Below are positions 1 through 9,464 of a stretch of 9,465 bases of DNA, one piece after another. Below the pieces are notes generated by a model, which did no database searches, was not told the origin of the DNA, and saw nothing but the letters and a program-made list of their open reading frames with translations. The DNA is from a virus (lineage: Duplodnaviria > Heunggongvirae > Uroviricota > Caudoviricetes). The stretch covers positions 1 through 9,465 of the IMG/VR virus record IMGVR_UViG_2711768056_000002, one strand, 5' to 3'. Made by a program: the position numbers and the translations under genes. Within the stretch, counting starts at the first letter, position 1. Every line of letters starts with the position of its first letter.

Positions 1-15
1 ATTCAGGGGGCCAGT

Positions 16-591
16 CTACTCACGAATGAGTCTCAATGGTATTCCAGCATAAGATGATGATGGTCTTGATAGTTTTTTACCAACTAATGACTTAGTGCCA
101 ATAATACACCCATATGGTATTACAGAACCTTTGTTTATTGTGACACCTTCACCAACCCACACATGGTCTGAGATAACAATATCTTTTGCGTGATTTATCC
201 TCTCTCCACTTTCAATATCAATAATAGGATGTTCATCTGAAGTTCTAATATAAATAGAACTAGAGAACATGCAATCGTCACCAATTGTAATTGATTTACC
301 TTCCATTGCGAAGAAATGCACACCAGCGGTGGTCGTCCCGCTTCCAATAATTAACTTTGAACTGTTTTGCCGAATATCAATACAGCCTCTTATATTGCTC
401 TTTTTTTTAATATGCAAGGTATTATTCTCACCAATGATGTTTATTCTTAAATTTCTAAGAACTACACCTTCATCTATTGTAATTTTATGCCCGCTACCCT
501 GCACATTAACTTTAACACTTTTGTCAATGAGTACTGATGGATGTATATATATTTCATTACCACTTTCAAATTCACTGAATATATTTTCCAT
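16..591 (-). CDS. Hexapeptide-repeat (left-handed beta-helix) sugar O-acetyltransferase, LacA/Maa/NeuO-like; candidate lysogenic-conversion enzyme
   Basis: 191-codon ORF with ATG at 591..589 on the minus strand; stop codon included at 18..16. Translation shows tandem [LIV]-G-x-x-x-x hexapeptide units (IGDDCMF, HVWVGEGVTINKGSVIPYGCIIGTKSLVG) and a C-terminal ...SSYAGIPLRLIRE that resembles the conserved C-terminus of galactoside/maltose O-acetyltransferases. No obvious hydrophobic transmembrane stretch. AT-rich like the adjacent tailspike gene and on the same strand, about 100 nt downstream of it. Confidence 0.75.
   Translation of the reverse strand: MENIFSEFESGNEIYIHPSVLIDKSVKVNVQGSGHKITIDEGVVLRNLRINIIGENNTLHIKKKSNIRGCIDIRQNSSKLIIGSGTTTAGVHFFAMEGKSITIGDDCMFSSSIYIRTSDEHPIIDIESGERINHAKDIVISDHVWVGEGVTINKGSVIPYGCIIGTKSLVGKKLSRPSSSYAGIPLRLIRE
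401..408 (-). repeat. A8 homopolymer tract (T8 on the plus strand) inside the acetyltransferase coding sequence, at codons HIKKKS
   Basis: Plus-strand positions 401-408 read tttttttt, flanked by c and aa. On the coding strand this is cat att aaa aaa aag agc. Confidence 0.9.
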
Positions 592-691
592 AAAAATATT
601 ATCCGCATTACATAAACAGTCATACCAATCGATACAATCTATCTCTGGTAGTATAAACGACCTTCCAATTCCATGGAAGATCCATTACACG

Positions 692-2497
692 TTATAGGTT
701 TTCGAGTTTGTTCAATCTTTGCTCTAACCCCTCTATCCTTGAAAATGCAACATCTATAGCCTTTGTAACAAACGGTATAACCTGTTCGTAGGCAATTGTT
801 TTTACATCGCATCCATTGTTTACTAGATGATCTTGATATATACCACAGTCAATTCCAAGTCGATCAAGTAATTCTTTAACTTGCTGTGCAAGATACCCGG
901 CATGTTCTCTTTTCCTTTTTCTACTGCCATCTTTTTCATGTTGATGAATTCTAGTTTCAAAAATCGGATTGCCATTAGAATCATCACCAATTTTTACATT
1001 GTATTCTTCTATATAATCATCACGAAAATCCCACTTATAAAAATATGGGATTATTCCACGGACGAATGATACAGCAAGTTCTCCGTCTATTATTCGTTTA
1101 TCTGCTTTATCACGCTCATCAGACCGAGTTTGCACCGTACCATATACATAAACTGTCTGAGAAGAATTTCCTAACTGAATCTCATGATCTCCACCAACTC
1201 TGGCACGGTAGCCTAAAGCTACACAATTTAATTTCTCTTTTGCAGGTGTCCCATCAATCAAAAACCTACCAGCTTGATGTCCAAGATATACTAATTGGGT
1301 TCCAGTAGTCTCACTATCTCCTGACGCTGCACCAACAAAAACATTATCACTTCCTGTTGTTAAATTAAAGCCGGAAGCCCTACCAATAAGAACTGAATCG
1401 TTCATTTTTGTTGCTTTATATCCTGCTTGCATCCCACAAAAAACAACACCATTTAATCCATTCTGTGACCATGCAGCTTGATACCCTATAGCAACAATAT
1501 TATTGGGAGATTCCCCATATGAAGACAAACCAAGAGAAGCCTCACGTCCTAGTGCAACGTTTCCAGAACCATCCACATTTCTAAATAAGGCAGAGCGACC
1601 TGCAGCAAGATTATTACCGCCAGTTCCCGTCTCAGCACCAGAGAATGCTCCTATATAGGTATTACCACCACCAGTTGAGTTATTTTGCATTGCTGCTTGA
1701 CCGACAGCAACGTTATCTCTTCCTGTTGTTGTTTGTGACCCAGCATCCGTACCAACTGAAACATTTCTCTCTCCTGATGTTAATAGTTTGCCAGCGTTAT
1801 AACCAACCACTACATTATAACTGCCGGTTTTATAGTTGGCATAAGAAGAACTTTGAGCGTAAATAAAAATATTATAACTACCTGTAGTTAACAGTGCTCC
1901 AGCCTCATGTCCAAGTAGAACATTGCGCTGTCCTGTTGTAAGGCTTGCACCGGCTCGTCTACCAATACCAGTATTTTCCGCACCAACAGCCTCATCTGAC
2001 TCGTTACCTATAATTGATGATCCTGCTCCAACTCCGAAAAAAGCATTATTTTTCGCATATTCATTAGAAGAAAATGCATCAATTCCCCATACCGTATTAC
2101 TTGGGTCAGCATAACCAGGCGAATTTTCACCAGAAAAATTGGTTAATTCCTGCCTTAACTGATCTGGAGCATATTTCATTACATTTGGGAAATAGTGCTG
2201 CTGAGAGCCATACGCATCAAAAATCGCCATTGAGTGATTTTTTATAGTCGCAAACTTACCGAATTGACCATTCAATACAGGTTGTCCAGCTTGACTTATT
2301 TTTATTGGTTGAGAAACCTTAATATATTTTCCATTCTCATTCTCAAAATAAACATCCACTTGATTATCTGGATTAGTCGGATCGGTATCAGGCTTCCCGA
2401 TATAAATGCTTCCATTCGATACTGATTTAAATGTTCTTGACATTGTGAACAATTGATTAGGCATGGAAACTATAATGTTAGGTATAATGTCTGTCAT
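692..2497 (-). CDS. Tailspike / tail fibre protein with P22-type N-terminal head-binding domain, glycine-rich repeat shaft and C-terminal intramolecular chaperone (peptidase S74-like) domain
   Basis: 601-codon ORF, ATG at 2497..2495 preceded by GGAG about 10 nt upstream on the minus strand; stop TAA at 694..692. The N-terminal ~110 aa (MTDIIPNIIVSMPNQLFTMSRTFKSVSNGSIYIGKPDTDPTNPDNQVDVYFENENG...HSMAIFDAYGSQQHYFPNV) closely resemble the P22 tailspike head-binding domain as I recall it. The middle carries degenerate N-[VI]-x-[VIL]-G-x-x-A-G-x-x-x-T-T-G repeats. The C-terminal ~143 aa begin SDERDK and end ...RIEGLEQRLNKLENL, matching the self-cleaving chaperone domains of endosialidase and T5 pb1-type fibres. 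Confidence 0.9.
   Translation of the reverse strand: MTDIIPNIIVSMPNQLFTMSRTFKSVSNGSIYIGKPDTDPTNPDNQVDVYFENENGKYIKVSQPIKISQAGQPVLNGQFGKFATIKNHSMAIFDAYGSQQHYFPNVMKYAPDQLRQELTNFSGENSPGYADPSNTVWGIDAFSSNEYAKNNAFFGVGAGSSIIGNESDEAVGAENTGIGRRAGASLTTGQRNVLLGHEAGALLTTGSYNIFIYAQSSSYANYKTGSYNVVVGYNAGKLLTSGERNVSVGTDAGSQTTTGRDNVAVGQAAMQNNSTGGGNTYIGAFSGAETGTGGNNLAAGRSALFRNVDGSGNVALGREASLGLSSYGESPNNIVAIGYQAAWSQNGLNGVVFCGMQAGYKATKMNDSVLIGRASGFNLTTGSDNVFVGAASGDSETTGTQLVYLGHQAGRFLIDGTPAKEKLNCVALGYRARVGGDHEIQLGNSSQTVYVYGTVQTRSDERDKADKRIIDGELAVSFVRGIIPYFYKWDFRDDYIEEYNVKIGDDSNGNPIFETRIHQHEKDGSRKRKREHAGYLAQQVKELLDRLGIDCGIYQDHLVNNGCDVKTIAYEQVIPFVTKAIDVAFSRIEGLEQRLNKLENL
695..1123 (-). other. Tailspike C-terminal intramolecular chaperone / autoproteolytic domain (peptidase S74-like); predicted self-cleavage immediately before Ser459
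   Basis: Residues 459-601. Ser459 is encoded by the minus-strand codon at 1123..1121, verified as revcomp aga = tct, followed by D-E-R-D-K. The S-D-x-R-x-K start and the helical, Leu-rich C-terminus are characteristic of this domain family. The call is from recalled motifs, not a profile search. Confidence 0.6.
2168..2497 (-). other. Tailspike N-terminal head-binding (particle-attachment) domain, P22 type
   Basis: Residues 1 to about 110 of the tailspike ORF; estimated ~60% identity by eye to the P22 tailspike N-terminus recalled from memory. The domain boundary is approximate. Confidence 0.75.
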
Positions 2498-2661
2498 TTA
2501 ATTTGCTCCAGACGTAGCAATGCCGAACAAGATGCAACTTGCCCTGCATTGCACTAATGTCAGTTATGATTTGTTAATTATGAGATGAGTCTATGCAAAG
2601 AGATCTGTTGAATATTGCGCTCTATATATTTGGTTTTTGCACGTTCCTGGTGTTTGCGAAG
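2498..2661 (-). promoter_or_regulatory. 164-bp spacer between the gp16-like and tailspike genes; contains the tailspike ribosome-binding site and possibly a promoter or attenuating hairpin
   Basis: This is the only non-coding gap longer than 100 bp inside the structural block. GGAG lies upstream of the tailspike ATG. A 7-bp inverted repeat, gcaatgc at 2517-2523 and gcattgc at 2546-2552, flanks a 22-nt spacer. I could not identify a convincing sigma70 -35/-10 pair by eye. Confidence 0.3.
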
Positions 2662-4659
2662 CTATTCTGACAACGCATCAGACTTAGCCCCCTGCGTCAG
2701 AGCGTTAATTGCCTTTTGTGCCTGCTGCATTGCTTTCTCAAAGGCTGTTGATCCGCGTGGGGTATTTGCCATTCGGAGCATTGCATTTCTGAATGGTTCT
2801 CTCTCATAGGCGCGAGTAAGAAGTCCGTAGCTTACTGCTGCGCCAGTTGTCGCCGGGTTCATTGCCGTCCCATACCCGATAATGAACGGGATGGTTTGCT
2901 GCCCTGTTGGTGTTGTTACTGCCGCTTTTGCTGCCTGCTGAGTGGACTGAAGGTAATTTTTCAATCCTTTCAGATAAGCAGCGTCCTGCCCCTTAAATGT
3001 GATGCCAGTCTGGCTTTGCAGGATGTTAAGCTGTCGAAGGAACTGGTCAGGGGATCCACCTGATTTCTCCATCGCCTTTCCAATGATGCCATTGCGCATT
3101 TGCGCCCTGCCAACACGACCAACTGAGTTATACAGCGTCTTAATTTCCGATTTGTTCTTGCTGAATAGCATGTTGTTGACAACTTCCGGCGTCAGATCGC
3201 CTTTCATGAGAACATTCTTCAGCCTGGTATTCTTTAGTTTCGCGGCTTCGTCAGCGTAGACGGCATTGGCCTGCTGATATTTACGGAGAGTATCGTTGCC
3301 AAGATTCTGACCAATGGCACCATTGATATCGTCGGTCATTGCCTTGTAAACGCGCTGAATTGCAGCATCGGAACGGTTTGGTAACACTGGTCGCTCACCC
3401 TTCACGTCCATTCTGAACTGGCTGCGCAGATCGCTTAATTGCTTCAAATCCAGATTTACCGGACCATCAGGACCAGCATTGCGAACAAGCTCATCACGAT
3501 AGGACTGAAGTTTTGAAATAGTCTCGTTATCAGCAACCTTACCAAGCTTCTGCAGGTTAGATATTTCTGTATCAATCTGCTGAATTGCTCTTGCAGGCTG
3601 AATGTTTATTCCCGCCATAGCATTCTGAACCTGCTCCAGTCGATTTCCTGCAGCGCGACGAATTCCTGATGTTTTCGCTTTAAGGCTGTCAATAACAACC
3701 GCTGGATCATACTCACCGAATTTATCAGCAAATCTCTGAACCAACTGGCTTCTCGCTTCCTGTTGCGTTGCTCTCATTCCGCTTGTGCCCGCCAGGGGGA
3801 TATTTTCTGCTGTCGTTTGCGCCATTTTTCCGACGCGGGAAGTAGGCTGTAACAGGTCTGTGGTGTGCAGAGGCACTCCTTCACGCTCTGCAAATCTGAT
3901 AGCTTGCTGCGCTTCTGGCGCAATAGCACCACGAACTCCACGATAAGCAGCACCTAATCCACGTCCGGCAGCGTTAATAGCACCGCCAGCCAGCACACCA
4001 ACGCCCAAATCGGTGGCGAGTGCTTCCGCATCATCTTTCGCACTATTTGCAGCAAGTGATCCAACTGCGTTTTCTGCTAGAAGGCGAGTTGCCCCATGAG
4101 CAATTCGACCAGCAAGTGTTGGTGCCTGTGCTGCCGCTCTCTCAACGCCAGCAGGAGTGAGGTAAGGCAATGCTTCAGCAAATACCCTTCCCTCTGTCGT
4201 TTGTGGAGTCAGCGCGCCTTGCTGAAGGCCAAAGTCCTGCTCTAATCCCTGCGTTGTTACACGTGGCGCTGGTTGATATGTACCATCGCCAATGCCGAGT
4301 TTACCGCCAGCCCAAGCCGCCGCGCTTGTTACAGCATCGGCAACTGATGCAGGTATGTTTGCCACGTTCACGCCAGCCTGCACCAGTCCGCGACCAGTCT
4401 CTTTTACTGCTTCGCCAAGATCAGACATAAATCCACTTTGCTGTGGTTGTTGCTGTGCTACTGGTTGCTGTGTCTCCACTTGCTGCACATATGGCAATGG
4501 ATAGGCAGCATAGAAAGCTTGCTTAGCCTGCTCTGCATTTTCTCCGGCTTGCGGGGCAACGACTTCATTGAAGTATTGCTCCTGAGCCTGCGCTTTTTGT
4601 TCTGGTGCTAACGCCTGATACTGTGGAGAGGCGATAACATCTTTCCATGCTTTAGCCAT
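2662..4659 (-). CDS. Ejection (E) protein, P22 gp16-like
   Basis: 665-codon ORF, ATG at 4659..4657 overlapping the stop of the upstream gene (minus strand reads TAATG), with a GGGGTGA ribosome-binding site. The N-terminus MAKAWKDVIASPQYQALAPEQKAQAQEQYF... matches my recollection of P22 gp16. It sits in the gp16 position, last of the three E proteins before the tailspike. Confidence 0.85.
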   Translation of the reverse strand: MAKAWKDVIASPQYQALAPEQKAQAQEQYFNEVVAPQAGENAEQAKQAFYAAYPLPYVQQVETQQPVAQQQPQQSGFMSDLGEAVKETGRGLVQAGVNVANIPASVADAVTSAAAWAGGKLGIGDGTYQPAPRVTTQGLEQDFGLQQGALTPQTTEGRVFAEALPYLTPAGVERAAAQAPTLAGRIAHGATRLLAENAVGSLAANSAKDDAEALATDLGVGVLAGGAINAAGRGLGAAYRGVRGAIAPEAQQAIRFAEREGVPLHTTDLLQPTSRVGKMAQTTAENIPLAGTSGMRATQQEARSQLVQRFADKFGEYDPAVVIDSLKAKTSGIRRAAGNRLEQVQNAMAGINIQPARAIQQIDTEISNLQKLGKVADNETISKLQSYRDELVRNAGPDGPVNLDLKQLSDLRSQFRMDVKGERPVLPNRSDAAIQRVYKAMTDDINGAIGQNLGNDTLRKYQQANAVYADEAAKLKNTRLKNVLMKGDLTPEVVNNMLFSKNKSEIKTLYNSVGRVGRAQMRNGIIGKAMEKSGGSPDQFLRQLNILQSQTGITFKGQDAAYLKGLKNYLQSTQQAAKAAVTTPTGQQTIPFIIGYGTAMNPATTGAAVSYGLLTRAYEREPFRNAMLRMANTPRGSTAFEKAMQQAQKAINALTQGAKSDALSE

Positions 4660-5954
4660 TAATCACCCCATAGTGAAGAAAAGTTACTGCCAGTAGTAGA
4701 TTGTTGCCCTGGCGTATTCTGTACTGGCTCCTGATAATCAAACTGTTTTTTAACAGTGCTCAACTTGCTTTCAAGCTGATTTCGAATCTTTCCGATAGAG
4801 TCACGAAAAGCCTTTTCACTCATTTTGGGACTTAGAGCACCAACCGCATCAGATAATTTTTTACCCTCAGCATCTGAAAGAGCCCCCATCCCCTTCAGGG
4901 ACTGCACCATAGGGAGGAAAGTTTGAGCTTTAAAGGTGTCGAGTCTTGCTTCAAAGTTAGCCGCATCAGAGCCAGGAACTGTCGGAAACGCTGAGCGAAT
5001 TCCTACTGCTTTTGAAAGGCCGGGGCTTTGCTCTATCTCGTTGAGAGAATCAAGCGCGGTGCTGAACGTATCAACTGCACCCTGAGCGGCGGCCTGCCTG
5101 TCAGCGCGGGCTATGTCAGCCTTTTGCCGAACATCTGCCTGTTTCTGTTTTAGCTCTTCGAGCTTTAACTGATTGCTTTCTCTGGCTATCTGTCTGTCCA
5201 GAGCCTTTTCTTGTAATTCTGCTCTTTGTATTTCTCGGGAAAGAGCAGCATTCTGTGCGCTGATGTTCTGTCCACGTATCTGGATGTCCTGACCTCGAGC
5301 TGTTAGTGCTTCTCCTGCCTGATTGCTGCGGATTGTCTCTGCCAGCCTGTCTCGGTCAATCTCACGACCAGCCATCTTGTCCTGAACATTGAAGTAATCA
5401 ATCGGACCAAGCGCAGCCATCCCAAGGTGATCAACAAACTCACCAAATCCTGAAGGATTCTGCTGATACATCTGAGCAACGTTGTTAGGGTCAACACCGA
5501 CGCGATTCAGTTCCTTGGCGTTGTTTTGCAGCCATGATTGCATTGCTTCTGGAGACGAGGCAGCAAGGCGTGCGCCAGCCGCTAAGGTGCCGATAGAATT
5601 GCGCTGGTCTTCATCAATGAACCCCATGCCTTTACGAATAGATTCAATCTGGTCTGGATATTGAGTAGCCAACTGACGCAAAGCTCCGCGATCACCAGAC
5701 GCATAAGCATTAGCGTATGCCTGCTGAAATTCTTTCTGCCGCTGAGCCTGCTTTTCCTGATGAAAAACACCCGCAATACCTGAAAGACCTTGCAAAGCAG
5801 TCAGCCCAACATTGTTAGCACCTGAACGCTCAATATCATTGTTCTGCCTGATAAGCTGAAGCGTATTGCCGATGTCATTTACGTTCGGAGCGTTTGAGTT
5901 GACACCACCGATACCAGCCAACAATCCGCCATTTGTTCCTTGCCAAGTAGCCAT
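4659..5954 (-). CDS. Ejection (E) protein, P22 gp20-like
   Basis: 431-codon ORF, ATG at 5954..5952 preceded by AAGGGG on the minus strand; stop TAA at 4661..4659. N-terminus MATWQGTNGGLLAGIGGVNSNAPNVND...; central Gln/Arg/Glu-rich predicted coiled coil. Position between the gp7-like and gp16-like genes. Confidence 0.8.
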   Translation of the reverse strand: MATWQGTNGGLLAGIGGVNSNAPNVNDIGNTLQLIRQNNDIERSGANNVGLTALQGLSGIAGVFHQEKQAQRQKEFQQAYANAYASGDRGALRQLATQYPDQIESIRKGMGFIDEDQRNSIGTLAAGARLAASSPEAMQSWLQNNAKELNRVGVDPNNVAQMYQQNPSGFGEFVDHLGMAALGPIDYFNVQDKMAGREIDRDRLAETIRSNQAGEALTARGQDIQIRGQNISAQNAALSREIQRAELQEKALDRQIARESNQLKLEELKQKQADVRQKADIARADRQAAAQGAVDTFSTALDSLNEIEQSPGLSKAVGIRSAFPTVPGSDAANFEARLDTFKAQTFLPMVQSLKGMGALSDAEGKKLSDAVGALSPKMSEKAFRDSIGKIRNQLESKLSTVKKQFDYQEPVQNTPGQQSTTGSNFSSLWGD

Positions 5955-5963
5955 GATTACCCC

Positions 5964-6659
5964 TTAAAACAACGATCCAAGCAGGCCAAGTCCGCCGCCA
6001 ATTGCCGCACCTAATCCAGTGCCAAGTCCTGGAACAATAGAGCCAAGAGCAGCGCCAGTCATAGCCCCTGAAGCTCCGCCACTAATTGCTGTCTGAAGAC
6101 CTGATGGTTTATTGGCATTAGCAGCGGCAAGAGCCGCACTTTGCTGCGAAATCTGACTCATGTTGTTGGCATATGTCTGCCCGGCGTTTGCCTGACCTTG
6201 CAGTGCGCCAAGACCAATATTTGCCAGATTCTGGTAGTTGTTCATCTGACCAGACAGCCACTGCTGACCAAGCGTTGGTGCGATTGTTGCTAACTGATTA
6301 CCGGTTGCAGTGGAACCCAATCCACCTGTTGCTTCCGCTGCCGCCAGACTCTGATAGCGAGCCTGACCAGCAAGATCTTTGTACTGCTGAGAGTTGTAAT
6401 ACTGGTTAAGTGCCTGACCTTGCCCCTGAAGAGAGGAAAGATTCTGCAATTGTGATACGTACTGCTGAGCGAGTGGCGTGAACGGAGCAAGGTTTTTCAT
6501 GATCGTCTGCCACTGCTGATTCTGCAGGTCTGCGGCATACTTCTGAGCTTCTGCGGCATACTTTGCGCTTTTATCAGAACTGCCACCTTTCCCACCCTTT
6601 TCAGGGCAATAAGGTTCCTCGCCGCGCAGTTTTCTGCCCAGCTTAAATGCATATAACAT
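5964..6659 (-). CDS. Ejection (E) protein, P22 gp7-like
   Basis: 231-codon ORF, ATG at 6659..6657 preceded by GGGAG; stop TAA at 5966..5964. N-terminus MLYAFKLGRKLRGEEPYCPEKGGKGGSSDKS...; Gln/Asn-rich middle; Gly/Ala/Leu-rich hydrophobic C-terminus. Size close to the 229 aa I recall for P22 gp7. Confidence 0.8.
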   Translation of the reverse strand: MLYAFKLGRKLRGEEPYCPEKGGKGGSSDKSAKYAAEAQKYAADLQNQQWQTIMKNLAPFTPLAQQYVSQLQNLSSLQGQGQALNQYYNSQQYKDLAGQARYQSLAAAEATGGLGSTATGNQLATIAPTLGQQWLSGQMNNYQNLANIGLGALQGQANAGQTYANNMSQISQQSAALAAANANKPSGLQTAISGGASGAMTGAALGSIVPGLGTGLGAAIGGGLGLLGSLF

Positions 6660-6661
6660 GG

Positions 6662-7117
6662 CTATCTCCCGTGATTCAGGAAGTCGATTAGTTCTTCGCG
6701 TGTGGCGCTGTAAAACGTCACGTCATCCACGCCTTTGAAGTATTTTTTGATGGTTCCTACACGATTAAGGCCAATCATTGCGCAGTACATCTGACCGTGG
6801 CGGAATTTGCGTGCAGCGAACGATGTGACGCACTGAACGGTGGTGTTAGTCAGAATGTATCGCCAGAAAGCCAGCCCGATTTCCTTGCTGAATCCGCGAA
6901 TCTCTGGCAGGTACATGGCGTGGCAATCAAAGGTCAGCGGCTGAATCTCCTGATAGTAAACAATTCCGCCGAACTGCCCGTGCACGTTCACCTCAAAGTA
7001 ACGGCATTCAGGCTTGTAGTCGTATCCATCGCCGTTGTTGCTCCCGGCGATAATGTCAGGGTGATTTCCTACTGCTTCGATCAGGTCGATGTTTCGCGTT
7101 GGTTTGAAATGAATCAT
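6662..7117 (-). CDS. P22 gp14-like small late protein (function not well defined)
   Basis: ORF in the gp14 position between the needle and gp7 genes. I place the start at the ATG at 7117..7115, which overlaps the needle stop (minus strand reads TGATG). The ORF track extends one codon further, to a GTG at 7120..7118. Stop TAG at 6664..6662. Assigned mainly by synteny and size. Confidence 0.6.
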   Translation of the reverse strand: MIHFKPTRNIDLIEAVGNHPDIIAGSNNGDGYDYKPECRYFEVNVHGQFGGIVYYQEIQPLTFDCHAMYLPEIRGFSKEIGLAFWRYILTNTTVQCVTSFAARKFRHGQMYCAMIGLNRVGTIKKYFKGVDDVTFYSATREELIDFLNHGR

Positions 7118-8070
7118 CACTGCTCCGCGATTATCTTGATGGTTGTGGCAGTAAACGCCGCACCATTCGACTGAATGGTTAACGTGCTGCCATTTGTGGC
7201 AAGAAAGCCGTCTTTATCCACGCTGAAGAACGTAGCTAACAGGATGTTGTCGGTTGTTGTCGCCGCATTACGACTGCTGACCAACGTGTCAGGAACAGAG
7301 CCGGAAAAGGTTAGCTGCATTGACCTGTTGGCGGTTCCGCTGGGCCACGTCCCGACGATCGACAGCTTGAAGAACAGGGTTTTGTTCTCGTTGAACACAA
7401 CCATCTTGTTGTTAACGGTGTCGAAGAATGGTGCCAATGTGCCGGATGACGGCGTGAGCGTTTTCAGCAGGCTAACAAGGTTGGTCGGCGCTGTCGGGAT
7501 GGTTACAGATACTCCTGAGTAAACAACCTCTGATTTCTTGCGCGTGGTGGCATACTCAAGCGCAGATATTCTTGTTGAGTGATCACCAACTGTGCTTTGT
7601 AGCGTCGAAATACTTCCTTCTGCCGCTGTGAGCCTGGTATCAAGTGCGTCGATATCGGTTGTATTCTGAGTTATGCGCGCATCATGGTTTGCTAACTCAG
7701 ATTCATTGGCAGCAATTCGCGTATCGTGATCAGCCAGCTCTGTTTCAGCAGCCGTAATCCTTGTTTCATGATCTGCAAGAGTGCTTTCCGCTGCTGCAAT
7801 TCTATGTTCATGATTGATGAGAGTTGATTCAGCAGCTTCAATTCTGGATTCATGGTCTGCAAGGGTGACATCCTGCTCATCATTCTTCACCTGTGCATCA
7901 TAAGCCCCCTTCCCTGCTTCGTTGGCCTTGTTAGCCACGTTACCAACATCAGCACCCTGTGCAATAACGTACAGCAGATATGACTGCGAGAAGATATTAC
8001 GCGGAAGGACTGATGTGTCGAGCCGCGTAGCCTGGATGATTACCGGCTCATTGAGATTCGAATCAGCCAT
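7117..8070 (-). CDS. Tail needle (P22 gp26-like) with extended repeat coiled coil and a large C-terminal domain
   Basis: 317-codon ORF, ATG at 8070..8068 overlapping the stop of the gp10-like gene (TAATG); stop TGA at 7119..7117. The N-terminal ~68 aa ([68 protein letters not shown]) closely match the P22 gp26 N-terminus as I recall it. They are followed by heptad-pattern repeats and a ~150-aa Ser/Thr-rich C-terminal region. Confidence 0.9.
7654..7863 (-). repeat. Five tandem degenerate 42-bp repeats encoding 14-residue (double-heptad) units of the tail-needle coiled coil
   Basis: Protein units [14 protein letters not shown] / [14 protein letters not shown] / [14 protein letters not shown] / [14 protein letters not shown] / [14 protein letters not shown]. 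Matching DNA periodicity is visible on the plus strand, e.g. ...tcatg(a/g)tctgcaag(a/g)gt... recurring at about 42-bp spacing between 7680 and 7860. A further weaker unit extends to about 7612. Confidence 0.8.
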
Positions 8071-9464
8071 TACTCAATCCTTATCTGGCAGCCAGACAGA
8101 GTGACAGGTGACTTCGTGATAACGCGCAATTTGAAACCGACATTTTTCCTGATGCGCCCGACACGCTTCCACAAAACGCGTTTGTCGTAAACGAACGGTT
8201 CATTCTGCTCAATCATCTGCTCACGCCCGTAATTGATGCCGTCAGTGGTTGCAGAGAGAAAAAGGCGGTCAGCATACTGCGCAACGCCAGTTGACGACTC
8301 AACCTCAAGGTCGAACACTCTGGCGTTATCCGCTTTGAACAACGGAGTAAACAGCAGGTGTTCCTGTTGAAGACCATACTGACTGCTGATATCGAACTGC
8401 AATTTCCCGGTCACGGACTCCAGCTTATCGCCGCACGTTATCTGATTGCCTTCGTAAATGAAGTCGATAGCGCGGTACACATCGTCATACAAGCCTGTTT
8501 TCAGCACACACCATTGCGGACCATTGGCGCTTGAAGATGCGTCGTACACGAGGACGTGGCGCGGAAGGTGGATAATCAGCAACTCATGAGCATCAAACCG
8601 CAACGATTCCATCACGCCATCAGCCAGTTCATCAGCAGTGTAGGAACGAAGGATTTTCTCAATGCTCGCGCTGGCGATTGGTGATACCTGACCGGATCCG
8701 ATGATGTACACAGACGGCGCACCTGTTGCCGGATTGCTGATGAACGCATACGAATCAGCAAACGGCGTTTTGCAGTAGGTTCCGGCAATACCTTTCTGCA
8801 CCATCAGCGATGGCTGTGCGACATACAAAGCGGCACCAACGGTGGTTGCACCTGTCAGGGAAAAATATTCAATCGTCGATGAACCAAAGCAGACGATGAA
8901 GTCTCGCCATGTCCCGATACCGATGATGCCGTCCGGCTGCGATTCTGCGCGATATTGTGCGCTGTATCGGTCAGGATGCGATTCGTCTCCAAGGTCAGTG
9001 ATAAACCATGAATCCGTGCCGTCTTTTGACCACGCATAACGCCCACGTAAGCGCGTAATGTCACGAACCGAACCTAACTCATACTGCGTGAATCCGCTGT
9101 CTGTAGGCCAGTTTGAGACGGTTTTAACCGTGCCATCATAGCGATACTCGACCAGTTGACCATTAACGCCAACCGCCTGTGATGTTCGACCATGTGCCAT
9201 TGATACGCGACCACTTCCAGCAACATCACCCACTTCACTTTCACCCTTATACAGCTTGCCACCGCACACGCGATAAACAGCATTCTGCGCCATGTTGTAC
9301 TCGACGCCGCGAGATACACCGTTCACATCAGAACGTTTGGCAATGCCCGGGAATGAGCGAAGATATCCGCTGCTGTTAAGGATTTCTTTGGGTGTAGCCA
9401 GCATATTCACTGGCAGATAGTCGATATAGTCGGCGTTTCTAAAGTCTTTGCCGACACCTTTCAT
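8070..9464 (-). CDS. Tail hub / packaged-DNA stabilisation protein, P22 gp10-like; 5' end probably truncated by the window edge
   Basis: 464-codon ORF running to the last full codon of the window; stop TAA at 8072..8070. Translation from the in-window ATG at 9464..9462 begins [44 protein letters not shown]... and ends ...[17 protein letters not shown], matching my recollection of P22 gp10 throughout. P22 gp10 is slightly longer, so the true start is probably a few codons beyond position 9465. Confidence 0.88.

Follow-up and report, generated by a model that had tools for sequence, protein, structure and literature searches.

Temperate podoviruses can modify the surface glycan that phages use, as with Oac of Sf6 and GtrABC of P22. 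These systems share the logic and, roughly, the genome position of the gene described here, but they are unrelated proteins, being membrane acyltransferase-3 and glucosyltransferase systems whose action on the O antigen takes place at the membrane or beyond it. A closer precedent is NeuO (PDB 3jqy), whose gene lies directly downstream of the endosialidase tailspike gene siaK1 in the P22-like prophage CUS-3 and which acts in the cytoplasm on a group-2 capsule; it protects K1 strains, in that killing by K1 phage is reduced (PMC9659370). NeuO is a left-handed β-helix (LbH) enzyme with an active site lined by Met134, His147 and Trp171 (crystal numbering); LbH active sites are located between subunits, in NeuO the trimer interface is made by the C-terminal strand, which pairs with the adjacent subunit, and Arg222 is among the basic residues assigned to a proposed acceptor platform (PMC3046976). 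The other close relative, OatWY of N. meningitidis W-135/Y (PDB 2wlc-2wlg), is encoded by a chromosomal capsule-locus gene rather than by a phage and has a hexose-sialic acid heteropolymer as its substrate. Here we describe an acetyltransferase gene of this type at one end of the IMG/VR record IMGVR_UViG_2711768056_000002 (hereafter the window, meaning the whole 9465-nt stretch analysed), which is an entire contig that breaks off within the insertion sequence IS2. We consider it likely that this is a prophage-borne NeuO/OatWY-type conversion gene whose intact form acetylates a K112-type group-2 capsule, and that the window copy, cut by IS2, is probably inactive.

The gene appears in the window as a minus-strand open reading frame (ORF) of 191 amino acids that runs from an ATG at 591 to a stop at 16 (16..591), with a G+C content (GC) of 34%. 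Its product is a hexapeptide protein of the LbH superfamily with a match to Pfam Hexapep of 22 bits, under the gathering score. No curated NCBIfam equivalog was reached: WbbJ (46 bits, cut-off 243), Maa (36, cut-off 314) and LacA (34, cut-off 347) were matched weakly, as were WcaF, Vat and CatB, with the listed families 200-400 bits below their cut-offs (scores of 34-46 against cut-offs of 192-347 for Maa, LacA, WbbJ and WcaF). When all PDB sequences were searched with phmmer, NeuO of CUS-3 was the top match (E 2.7e-31, residues 10-190) and OatWY followed (2wlc; E 2.4e-27, residues 4-191), with Maa and LacA next at about 1e-8. Relatives among 50,697 phage records were NeuO of CUS-3 and the NeuO of a K1 APEC prophage at 37-39% identity, one Enterococcus phage protein and two partial Listeria phage matches; NeuO of CUS-3 is 39% identical across 94% of the protein. 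The AlphaFold2 (AF2) model of the intact 199-aa allele described below had a mean confidence (pLDDT) of 97.5, and Foldseek placed it closest to OatWY (template modelling score, TM, 0.92; root-mean-square deviation 0.9 Å; 33% identity) and NeuO (TM 0.86), the next LbH enzymes falling below TM 0.55.

The residues expected of such an enzyme are conserved. His121 (codon at 229..231, minus strand) corresponds to the NeuO catalytic His119 (His147 in crystal numbering), Trp145 (157..159, minus strand), which is invariant in the family, to the catalytic Trp143 (crystal Trp171), and Met108 to Met134 in crystal numbering. All three are kept in the window copy and are invariant or near-invariant across 50 homologues. 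At the C-terminus of the intact protein, Arg197 aligns with NeuO Arg222 in the phmmer alignment, and the Trp195-x-Arg197 motif is near-invariant in the family. NeuO and the phage enzyme share the LbH fold as well as the two catalytic residues (His and Trp), the Met and the Trp-x-Arg near the C-terminus. The Maa, LacA, WbbJ and WcaF enzymes belong to the same superfamily and align with the C-terminal half of the phage enzyme, but its N-terminal half and its quaternary-structure elements follow the NeuO/OatWY pattern. By sequence comparison and predicted fold, the gene product is thus a member of the NeuO/OatWY subfamily of LbH O-acetyltransferases and not a generic Maa/LacA/WbbJ enzyme. The likeness to NeuO, which the sequence-only reading had offered as an analogy, proved to be real homology, with NeuO and OatWY the best solved relatives in both sequence and fold; the profile search that it had proposed excluded Maa, LacA and WbbJ by their cut-offs.

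The gene lies 100 nt (spacer 592..691, minus strand) downstream of a 601-aa tailspike gene (692..2497, minus strand) whose product carries a P22 Head_binding domain (2159-2497, minus strand; E 1.5e-50), bearing out the earlier claim that the acetyltransferase directly follows the tailspike. The low GC said to be common to the two genes was likewise found: the acetyltransferase ORF has 34% and the tailspike 35-41%, where the remaining window has 50%. A megablast search of the tailspike and ORF stretch against 5426 complete E. coli genomes recovered this low-GC, exchangeable cassette (19..2512, minus strand; 2.5 kb) in seven genomes at 99.2-99.7% identity. In each it was the final coding unit of the prophage ahead of the host flank, which was torT in CM2, LC-1302-2020, EC5931 and OZ039848 and dacD in WWCOL-236, and the prophage modules upstream of the tailspike varied among carriers. 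Because the same cassette occurs at two attachment sites and in only 7 of the 5426 genomes, the gene is prophage cargo in a lysogenic-conversion (moron) location, not host flank. These data leave practically no room for a housekeeping or xenobiotic acetyltransferase of the host flank (Maa/LacA/Vat/CatB-like), the outcome that the sequence-only reading had named as fatal to its proposal: the NCBIfam and PDB matches to Maa, LacA, Vat and CatB that would speak for such an enzyme are weak, the NCBIfam scores lie far under their cut-offs, the structural similarity is below TM 0.55 against 0.86-0.92 for NeuO and OatWY, and the gene sits within a prophage at two chromosomal sites.

The 191-aa ORF of the sequence-only reading is real and encodes an LbH protein, but it is not the native gene and its stop codon belongs to IS2. 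Window positions 1-18 (ATTCAGGGGGCCAGTCTA; reverse complement TAGACTGGCCCCCTGAAT, as read on the minus strand) are identical at all 18 positions to the terminal 18 nt of an annotated IS2 in NZ_CP091756.1 (LC-1302-2020), and the contig stops here; we take this end to be the left inverted repeat (IRL) of IS2. Intact copies carry TCGCTCCCACCTAACACC where the window has the IS2 end, and homology to the intact E. coli copies began at window base 19 in every megablast match across the 5426 genomes. The TAG stop (16..18, minus strand) is not native but is the triplet with which the IS2 end begins. Comparison with the PDB matches and with an intact allele (P0087) identified 19..591 (minus strand) as codons 1-191 of a 199-codon NeuO/OatWY-type O-acetyltransferase gene, which in its native form is 600 nt long, encodes 199 aa and is annotated 'acyltransferase' in carrier genomes. 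The product of P0087 (199 aa, 25 contigs) is identical to the window product over residues 1-191 and then continues with GVRWERKL, the final eight codons that are absent from the window copy. The commonest alleles are intact (80, 72 and 25 contigs), whereas the exact 191-aa product, WP_053287810.1, is recorded from a single 9465-nt contig. WP_053287810.1 is therefore an IS2-truncated product and not a native protein: the gene family belongs to the NeuO/OatWY type, and the window holds a truncated member of it. The RefSeq entry ('acyltransferase', 191 aa) carries no partial or pseudogene flag.

Although short, the missing segment includes Trp195 and Arg197, both conserved in at least 90% of the 50 homologues, and the C-terminal strand with the Arg equivalent to NeuO Arg222 is present in the intact alleles and deleted in the window copy. 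Because IS2 removed the segment that forms the trimer interface in NeuO, and because LbH active sites are located between subunits, the window copy is probably inactive or badly impaired. It is conceivable, though we think it unlikely, that IS2 was functionally neutral and that the 191-aa enzyme is still active and still converts the capsule. Such an enzyme would retain Met108, His121 and Trp145 and the LbH solenoid through the strand at 187-191, with its start and frame unchanged and its loss limited to eight residues. That loss nevertheless takes in two of the roughly 22 near-invariant family positions, the equivalent strand and Arg222 have the roles in NeuO set out above, and other, independent disruptions of the gene suggest that its loss is tolerated or selected.

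These disruptions are varied. A second IS2 interrupts the gene in LC-1302-2020 at about codon 134, in the same orientation and flanked by a 5-bp GTGAT duplication; the differing site and its own duplication mark this as an independent event. This element occupies 9100-10510 of the excerpt L003 of NZ_CP091756.1, matching about window position 190, and the prophage around it is a remnant of about 9 kb that ends at an IS3-family element beside appA. Other broken forms in the protein cluster were a Q75 stop (74 aa), for which a 104-aa downstream remnant was present within the same 5.42-Mb genome, an N-terminally truncated form of 170 aa, and a form of 146 aa. With two IS2 insertions, one nonsense mutation and several truncations on record, inactivation of the gene may be tolerated or sometimes advantageous, which would parallel the on/off behaviour of neuO.

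The means of switching would differ from that of neuO, however. The poly-psi heptanucleotide AAGACTC, a 5' variable-number tandem repeat that drives phase variation of neuO, is absent from the window gene: no tandem repeats were found in window 1-2700, and no RLKTQDS heptads at the N-terminus of the acetyltransferase. We therefore rejected NeuO-like phase variation, for which the only candidate was a run of eight A residues (A8) on the coding strand at window 401-408. This run (codons Lys61-Lys63) is the sole simple repeat in the gene and a conceivable slippage site, yet the broken alleles observed are not explained by it. Further differences from NeuO are the lack of its 30-residue C-terminal helix extension, a partner that is a Gly-rich-repeat fibre here and an endosialidase in CUS-3, hosts whose capsule locus is probably of a non-sialic-acid type, attachment at torT or dacD rather than at argW, and the IS2 truncation itself. 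The spacer that separates the two coding sequences holds a terminator-like hairpin (682..659, minus strand; 9-bp stem, weak T tract), suggesting that the two genes are possibly not co-transcribed.

The feature common to the carrier strains is their capsule. EC5931 has a group-2 kps locus adjoining yghD, with a region 2 of five genes encoding proteins of 1157, 456, 238, 122 and 525 aa. This 7.5-kb region 2 is present in only 12 of the 5426 genomes, and those 12 include all but one of the seven cassette carriers (hypergeometric P = 1.8e-16, a value not corrected for relatedness). The seventh carrier, OZ039848, encodes the same kpsC/U/D/E/F proteins as EC5931 and lacks gsp, kpsMT and region 2; by this similarity it descends from the same capsule type, and it is probably a lysogen that lost its capsule yet keeps a prophage with an intact acetyltransferase. 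In NZ_OZ039848.1 (L019 30565-32479), an IS1 beside gss abuts kpsS, which links the deletion to this element.

O antigens, in contrast, are not shared: three carriers had three different O-antigen clusters (O16, a gne-type and another rfbBDAC-type), and we rejected an O-antigen association on this ground. The sequence-only reading had drawn a parallel with the gtr genes of P22, for which the target would be the O antigen, and here it appears to have been mistaken, the likely target being the group-2 capsule. That the enzyme instead acetylates O antigen or another undecaprenyl-diphosphate-linked glycan at the cytoplasmic face, as in a WbbJ-like O-serotype conversion, would agree with WbbJ being the top NCBIfam match (46 bits) and with the slot after the tailspike, which holds O-antigen modifiers in P22 and Sf6. 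We judge it highly improbable, given that the WbbJ score falls far short of its cut-off of 243 while NeuO and OatWY are much closer, that among the carriers a single capsule locus goes with at least three O-antigen clusters unrelated to one another, and that the closest homologues lie in kps loci (see below) and none in O-antigen loci. As a separate observation, the O-antigen flippase gene of WWCOL-236 (NZ_CP178552.1, L101 13829-16191) is annotated as partial, with an IS1A about 1 kb away, beside gnd; this strain may be without O antigen.

The gene content of region 2 indicates what kind of capsule is involved. [quoted passage not shown] The K112 locus in the 2026 kTYPr study has genes 7, 8, 9 and 11 of 525, 122, 238 and 1157 aa, the fourth of its five region-2 lengths being unlisted; its K112_11 shares 55% identity with the K97 polymerase, and ORFs of more than 1100 aa are described there as a GT99-like Kdo transferase plus ribofuranosyltransferase-phosphatase enzymes that make ribofuranose-Kdo (Ribf-Kdo) backbones, as in K13, K19, K20, K23, K95 and K97 (PMC13171606). 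Region 2 of EC5931 has the same order (525/122/238/456/1157 aa), and the HAD, Capsule_synth, BcbE-like GT2 and capsule-phosphatase annotations agree. The carriers' capsule thus matches kTYPr K112 by gene order, lengths and domain annotation, as distinct from sequence comparison with the reference GCF_000708145; the assembly accessions of the carriers were not found in the kTYPr supplements. From this assignment we infer that the K112 polymer is an acidic polymer of the Ribf-Kdo type, with a backbone that is predicted. Both Kdo and sialic acid are 3-deoxy-2-ulosonic acids. Because the two share this chemistry, a NeuO relative is plausible, by analogy, as a Kdo or ribose O-acetyltransferase. We also considered, and rejected, a K18/K22 (ribose-ribitol-phosphate) capsule with the gene as the missing K18 acetyltransferase: K18_K22_9 is a 1107-aa TagF-like protein and the K18/K22 locus shares genes of 97-99% identity with K100, whereas the carriers' region 2 was unmatched elsewhere in the 5426 genomes and its lengths fit K112. 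A Pfam scan of E. coli region 2 found no recognisable acetyltransferase domain. GC was 32% in K112 region 2 and 34% in the acetyltransferase gene, compared with 50% in the prophage backbone.

Homologues in other genera tie the enzyme family to capsule synthesis. Proteins of 47-58% identity were found inside kps-type loci (KpsMT, KpsCS, KpsDE, KpsFU) in Phytobacter and on three further contigs. Each adjoins a protein of 1096-1176 aa, which in all but one of the four loci has a HAD domain, and these large neighbours are full-length homologues of the 1157-aa E. coli K112 polymerase (28-42% identity); one of the foreign loci has three more homologues of region-2 genes at 48-61% identity. When each species was represented by one genome, the top four relatives (three Pseudomonas and Superficieibacter, 53-55% identity) were all in kps loci, and a polymerase homologue adjoins three of the four. 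The kps-locus homologues agree with the phage enzyme in length and end in the same RE-x-V-x-W-x-R-K-L motif. These in-locus acetyltransferases of Phytobacter, Superficieibacter, Pseudomonas and metagenomic contigs are uncharacterised and belong to region 2 on the chromosome; in the E. coli K112 locus no such in-locus acetyltransferase is recognisable, and the prophage supplies the gene instead. Region 2 of a metagenomic kps locus (L013) had no megablast match in the E. coli genomes. The closest homologue outside E. coli, at 70% identity, lies on a metagenomic contig (L006 583-1991), preceded by a 246-aa hexapeptide-repeat protein in what looks like a tandem acyltransferase pair. In Phytobacter (L007/L008 8760-11096), the homologue is convergent with the gene for a 778-aa Peptidase_G2 protein (phage pre-neck-appendage-like), the pair bordering the kps locus, where no further phage genes were in view.

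The tailspike partner of the enzyme has, besides its P22-type head-binding domain, a C-terminal Peptidase_S74 intramolecular chaperone (695-1123, minus strand), and it shows no recognisable depolymerase fold. Residues 115-601 (window 692-2155) include a Gly-rich solenoid with the consensus GxxNxAxGxxAxxxxTTG and a 17-residue period (central region about 1133-2095, minus strand). In a PDB sequence search the receptor-binding part had no relative, the match being limited to the head-binding domain. The AF2 model (pLDDT 85) consisted of short strands of 17-residue periodicity followed by the S74 chaperone, and Foldseek gave structural matches for intramolecular-chaperone domains only. As neither search gave an enzyme fold, we dropped the assignment of the tailspike as a depolymerase. 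Homologues of the receptor-binding part, at 83, 71 and 61% identity, are joined to different adaptors on contigs that resemble SU10-like, siphovirus and T7-like phages, and none has a neighbouring acetyltransferase; by these comparisons the receptor-binding module is exchanged among phages. In a Citrobacter freundii lambdoid prophage, an acetyltransferase of 55% identity lies beside an 852-aa fibre of the same receptor-binding type. The acetyltransferase was thus seen beside this receptor-binding module in prophages only, which fits a lysogenic-conversion role.

Together, these data are consistent with the following mechanism. The enzyme, encoded at the prophage end, would be a cytoplasmic, acetyl-CoA-dependent, trimeric LbH O-acetyltransferase that a P22-like temperate phage carries along with its receptor-binding protein as one cassette for lysogenic conversion. 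The intact form most likely O-acetylates the host group-2 capsule polymer (kps, ABC-transporter-dependent) in the cytoplasm before export, as proposed by likeness to NeuO, and this acetylation would alter the antigen and, by the same analogy, may reduce attack by capsule-targeting phages. In the window copy, IS2 stands in place of the last eight codons, and with them the trimer-interface strand and the NeuO Arg222 equivalent would be gone. The earlier proposal that the gene modifies the very glycan recognised by the tailspike therefore stands in part: the co-occurrence with a rare capsule locus and the homologues in kps loci lend it indirect support, whereas the window copy itself is truncated. 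The sequence-only reading had also held that the substrate cannot be read from the sequence, and this can now be revised, as genomic context narrows the probable substrate class to a K112-type capsule.

Several points weigh against this reading. The enzymatic function is inferred, and the enzyme itself is tied to capsule solely by the context of its homologues. Host range of the tailspike alone could drive the strain co-occurrence, as both genes are always linked, and the tailspike, with no recognisable depolymerase fold, is no more than a putative capsule binder. The K112 assignment was made by way of a supplementary table and not by sequence comparison, the polymer structure is predicted only, and no domain was recognised in the 456-aa K112_10, which leaves a slight chance of an acyltransferase within the locus. 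A promoter scan of 592-691, upstream of the acetyltransferase, found nothing at threshold. As for the truncation, the loss of eight residues may lower activity rather than abolish it, and a single short-read contig is the sole source of the truncated form.

The question of linkage can be taken further, since the K112 association might reflect tailspike host range only, with the acetyltransferase hitch-hiking and acting on an unrelated substrate. The tailspike and the acetyltransferase are never apart in E. coli genomes, so their co-occurrence cannot separate the two genes, and lytic phages with a receptor-binding domain of 61-83% identity carry no such acetyltransferase. A lysogenic-conversion gene, however, predicts just this absence from lytic phages; moreover, the homologues are integral to kps loci in which the K112 polymerase and other region-2 proteins also have their counterparts, and the same pairing with this receptor-binding type recurs in the Citrobacter lambdoid prophage. 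We consider hitch-hiking improbable on this evidence and favour an enzyme that acts on the K112-type capsule.

If confirmed, capsule acetylation by this enzyme would bear on how capsule types are predicted. Some serotypes differ by acetylation encoded elsewhere, as with K18 and K22, and this limits genotype-to-serotype prediction (PMC13171606). In-silico capsule typing of E. coli reads the kps locus only, and the cassette would offer a concrete example of an out-of-locus modifier: strains typed alike for K could be unlike in their antigenicity and in their susceptibility to phage, according to prophage presence and gene intactness, which is relevant for capsule-targeted phage therapy, vaccines and serology. 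It would also extend the NeuO paradigm of capsule acetylation against phage beyond polysialic acid. Tentatively, and with more doubt than confidence, we propose that NeuO-type prophage acetyltransferases are not confined to K1 and sialic acid but are a general means for temperate phages to change the type of E. coli group-2 capsules with a gene outside kps. Were this so, the present gene would encode the first O-acetyltransferase that a phage brings for a capsule of the Kdo/ribofuranose type, the genotypic 'K112' would be split into acetylated and non-acetylated serovariants, and switch-off would come about by recurrent IS2 insertion or point mutation and not by repeat slippage. It would also give a search strategy for the out-of-locus acetyltransferase that separates K18 from K22.

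The rest of the window is filled by a late module of the P22/Sf6 type, with every gene on the minus strand. From the far end of the contig these encode a gp10-type stabilisation protein (8070-9464), an Sf6-type needle knob (7117-8070), a DUF2824 protein (6662-7120), gp7 (5964-6659), gp20 (4659-5954) and a gp16-like DNA-transfer protein (2662-4659). The gap between the gp16-like gene and the tailspike gene (window 2498-2661) is 164 nt. Genes of the immI type (arc/mnt/ant) are missing between these two genes in the window and in CM2, and they occupy that gap in the related prophages L002, L003 (LC-1302-2020), L004 and L018.

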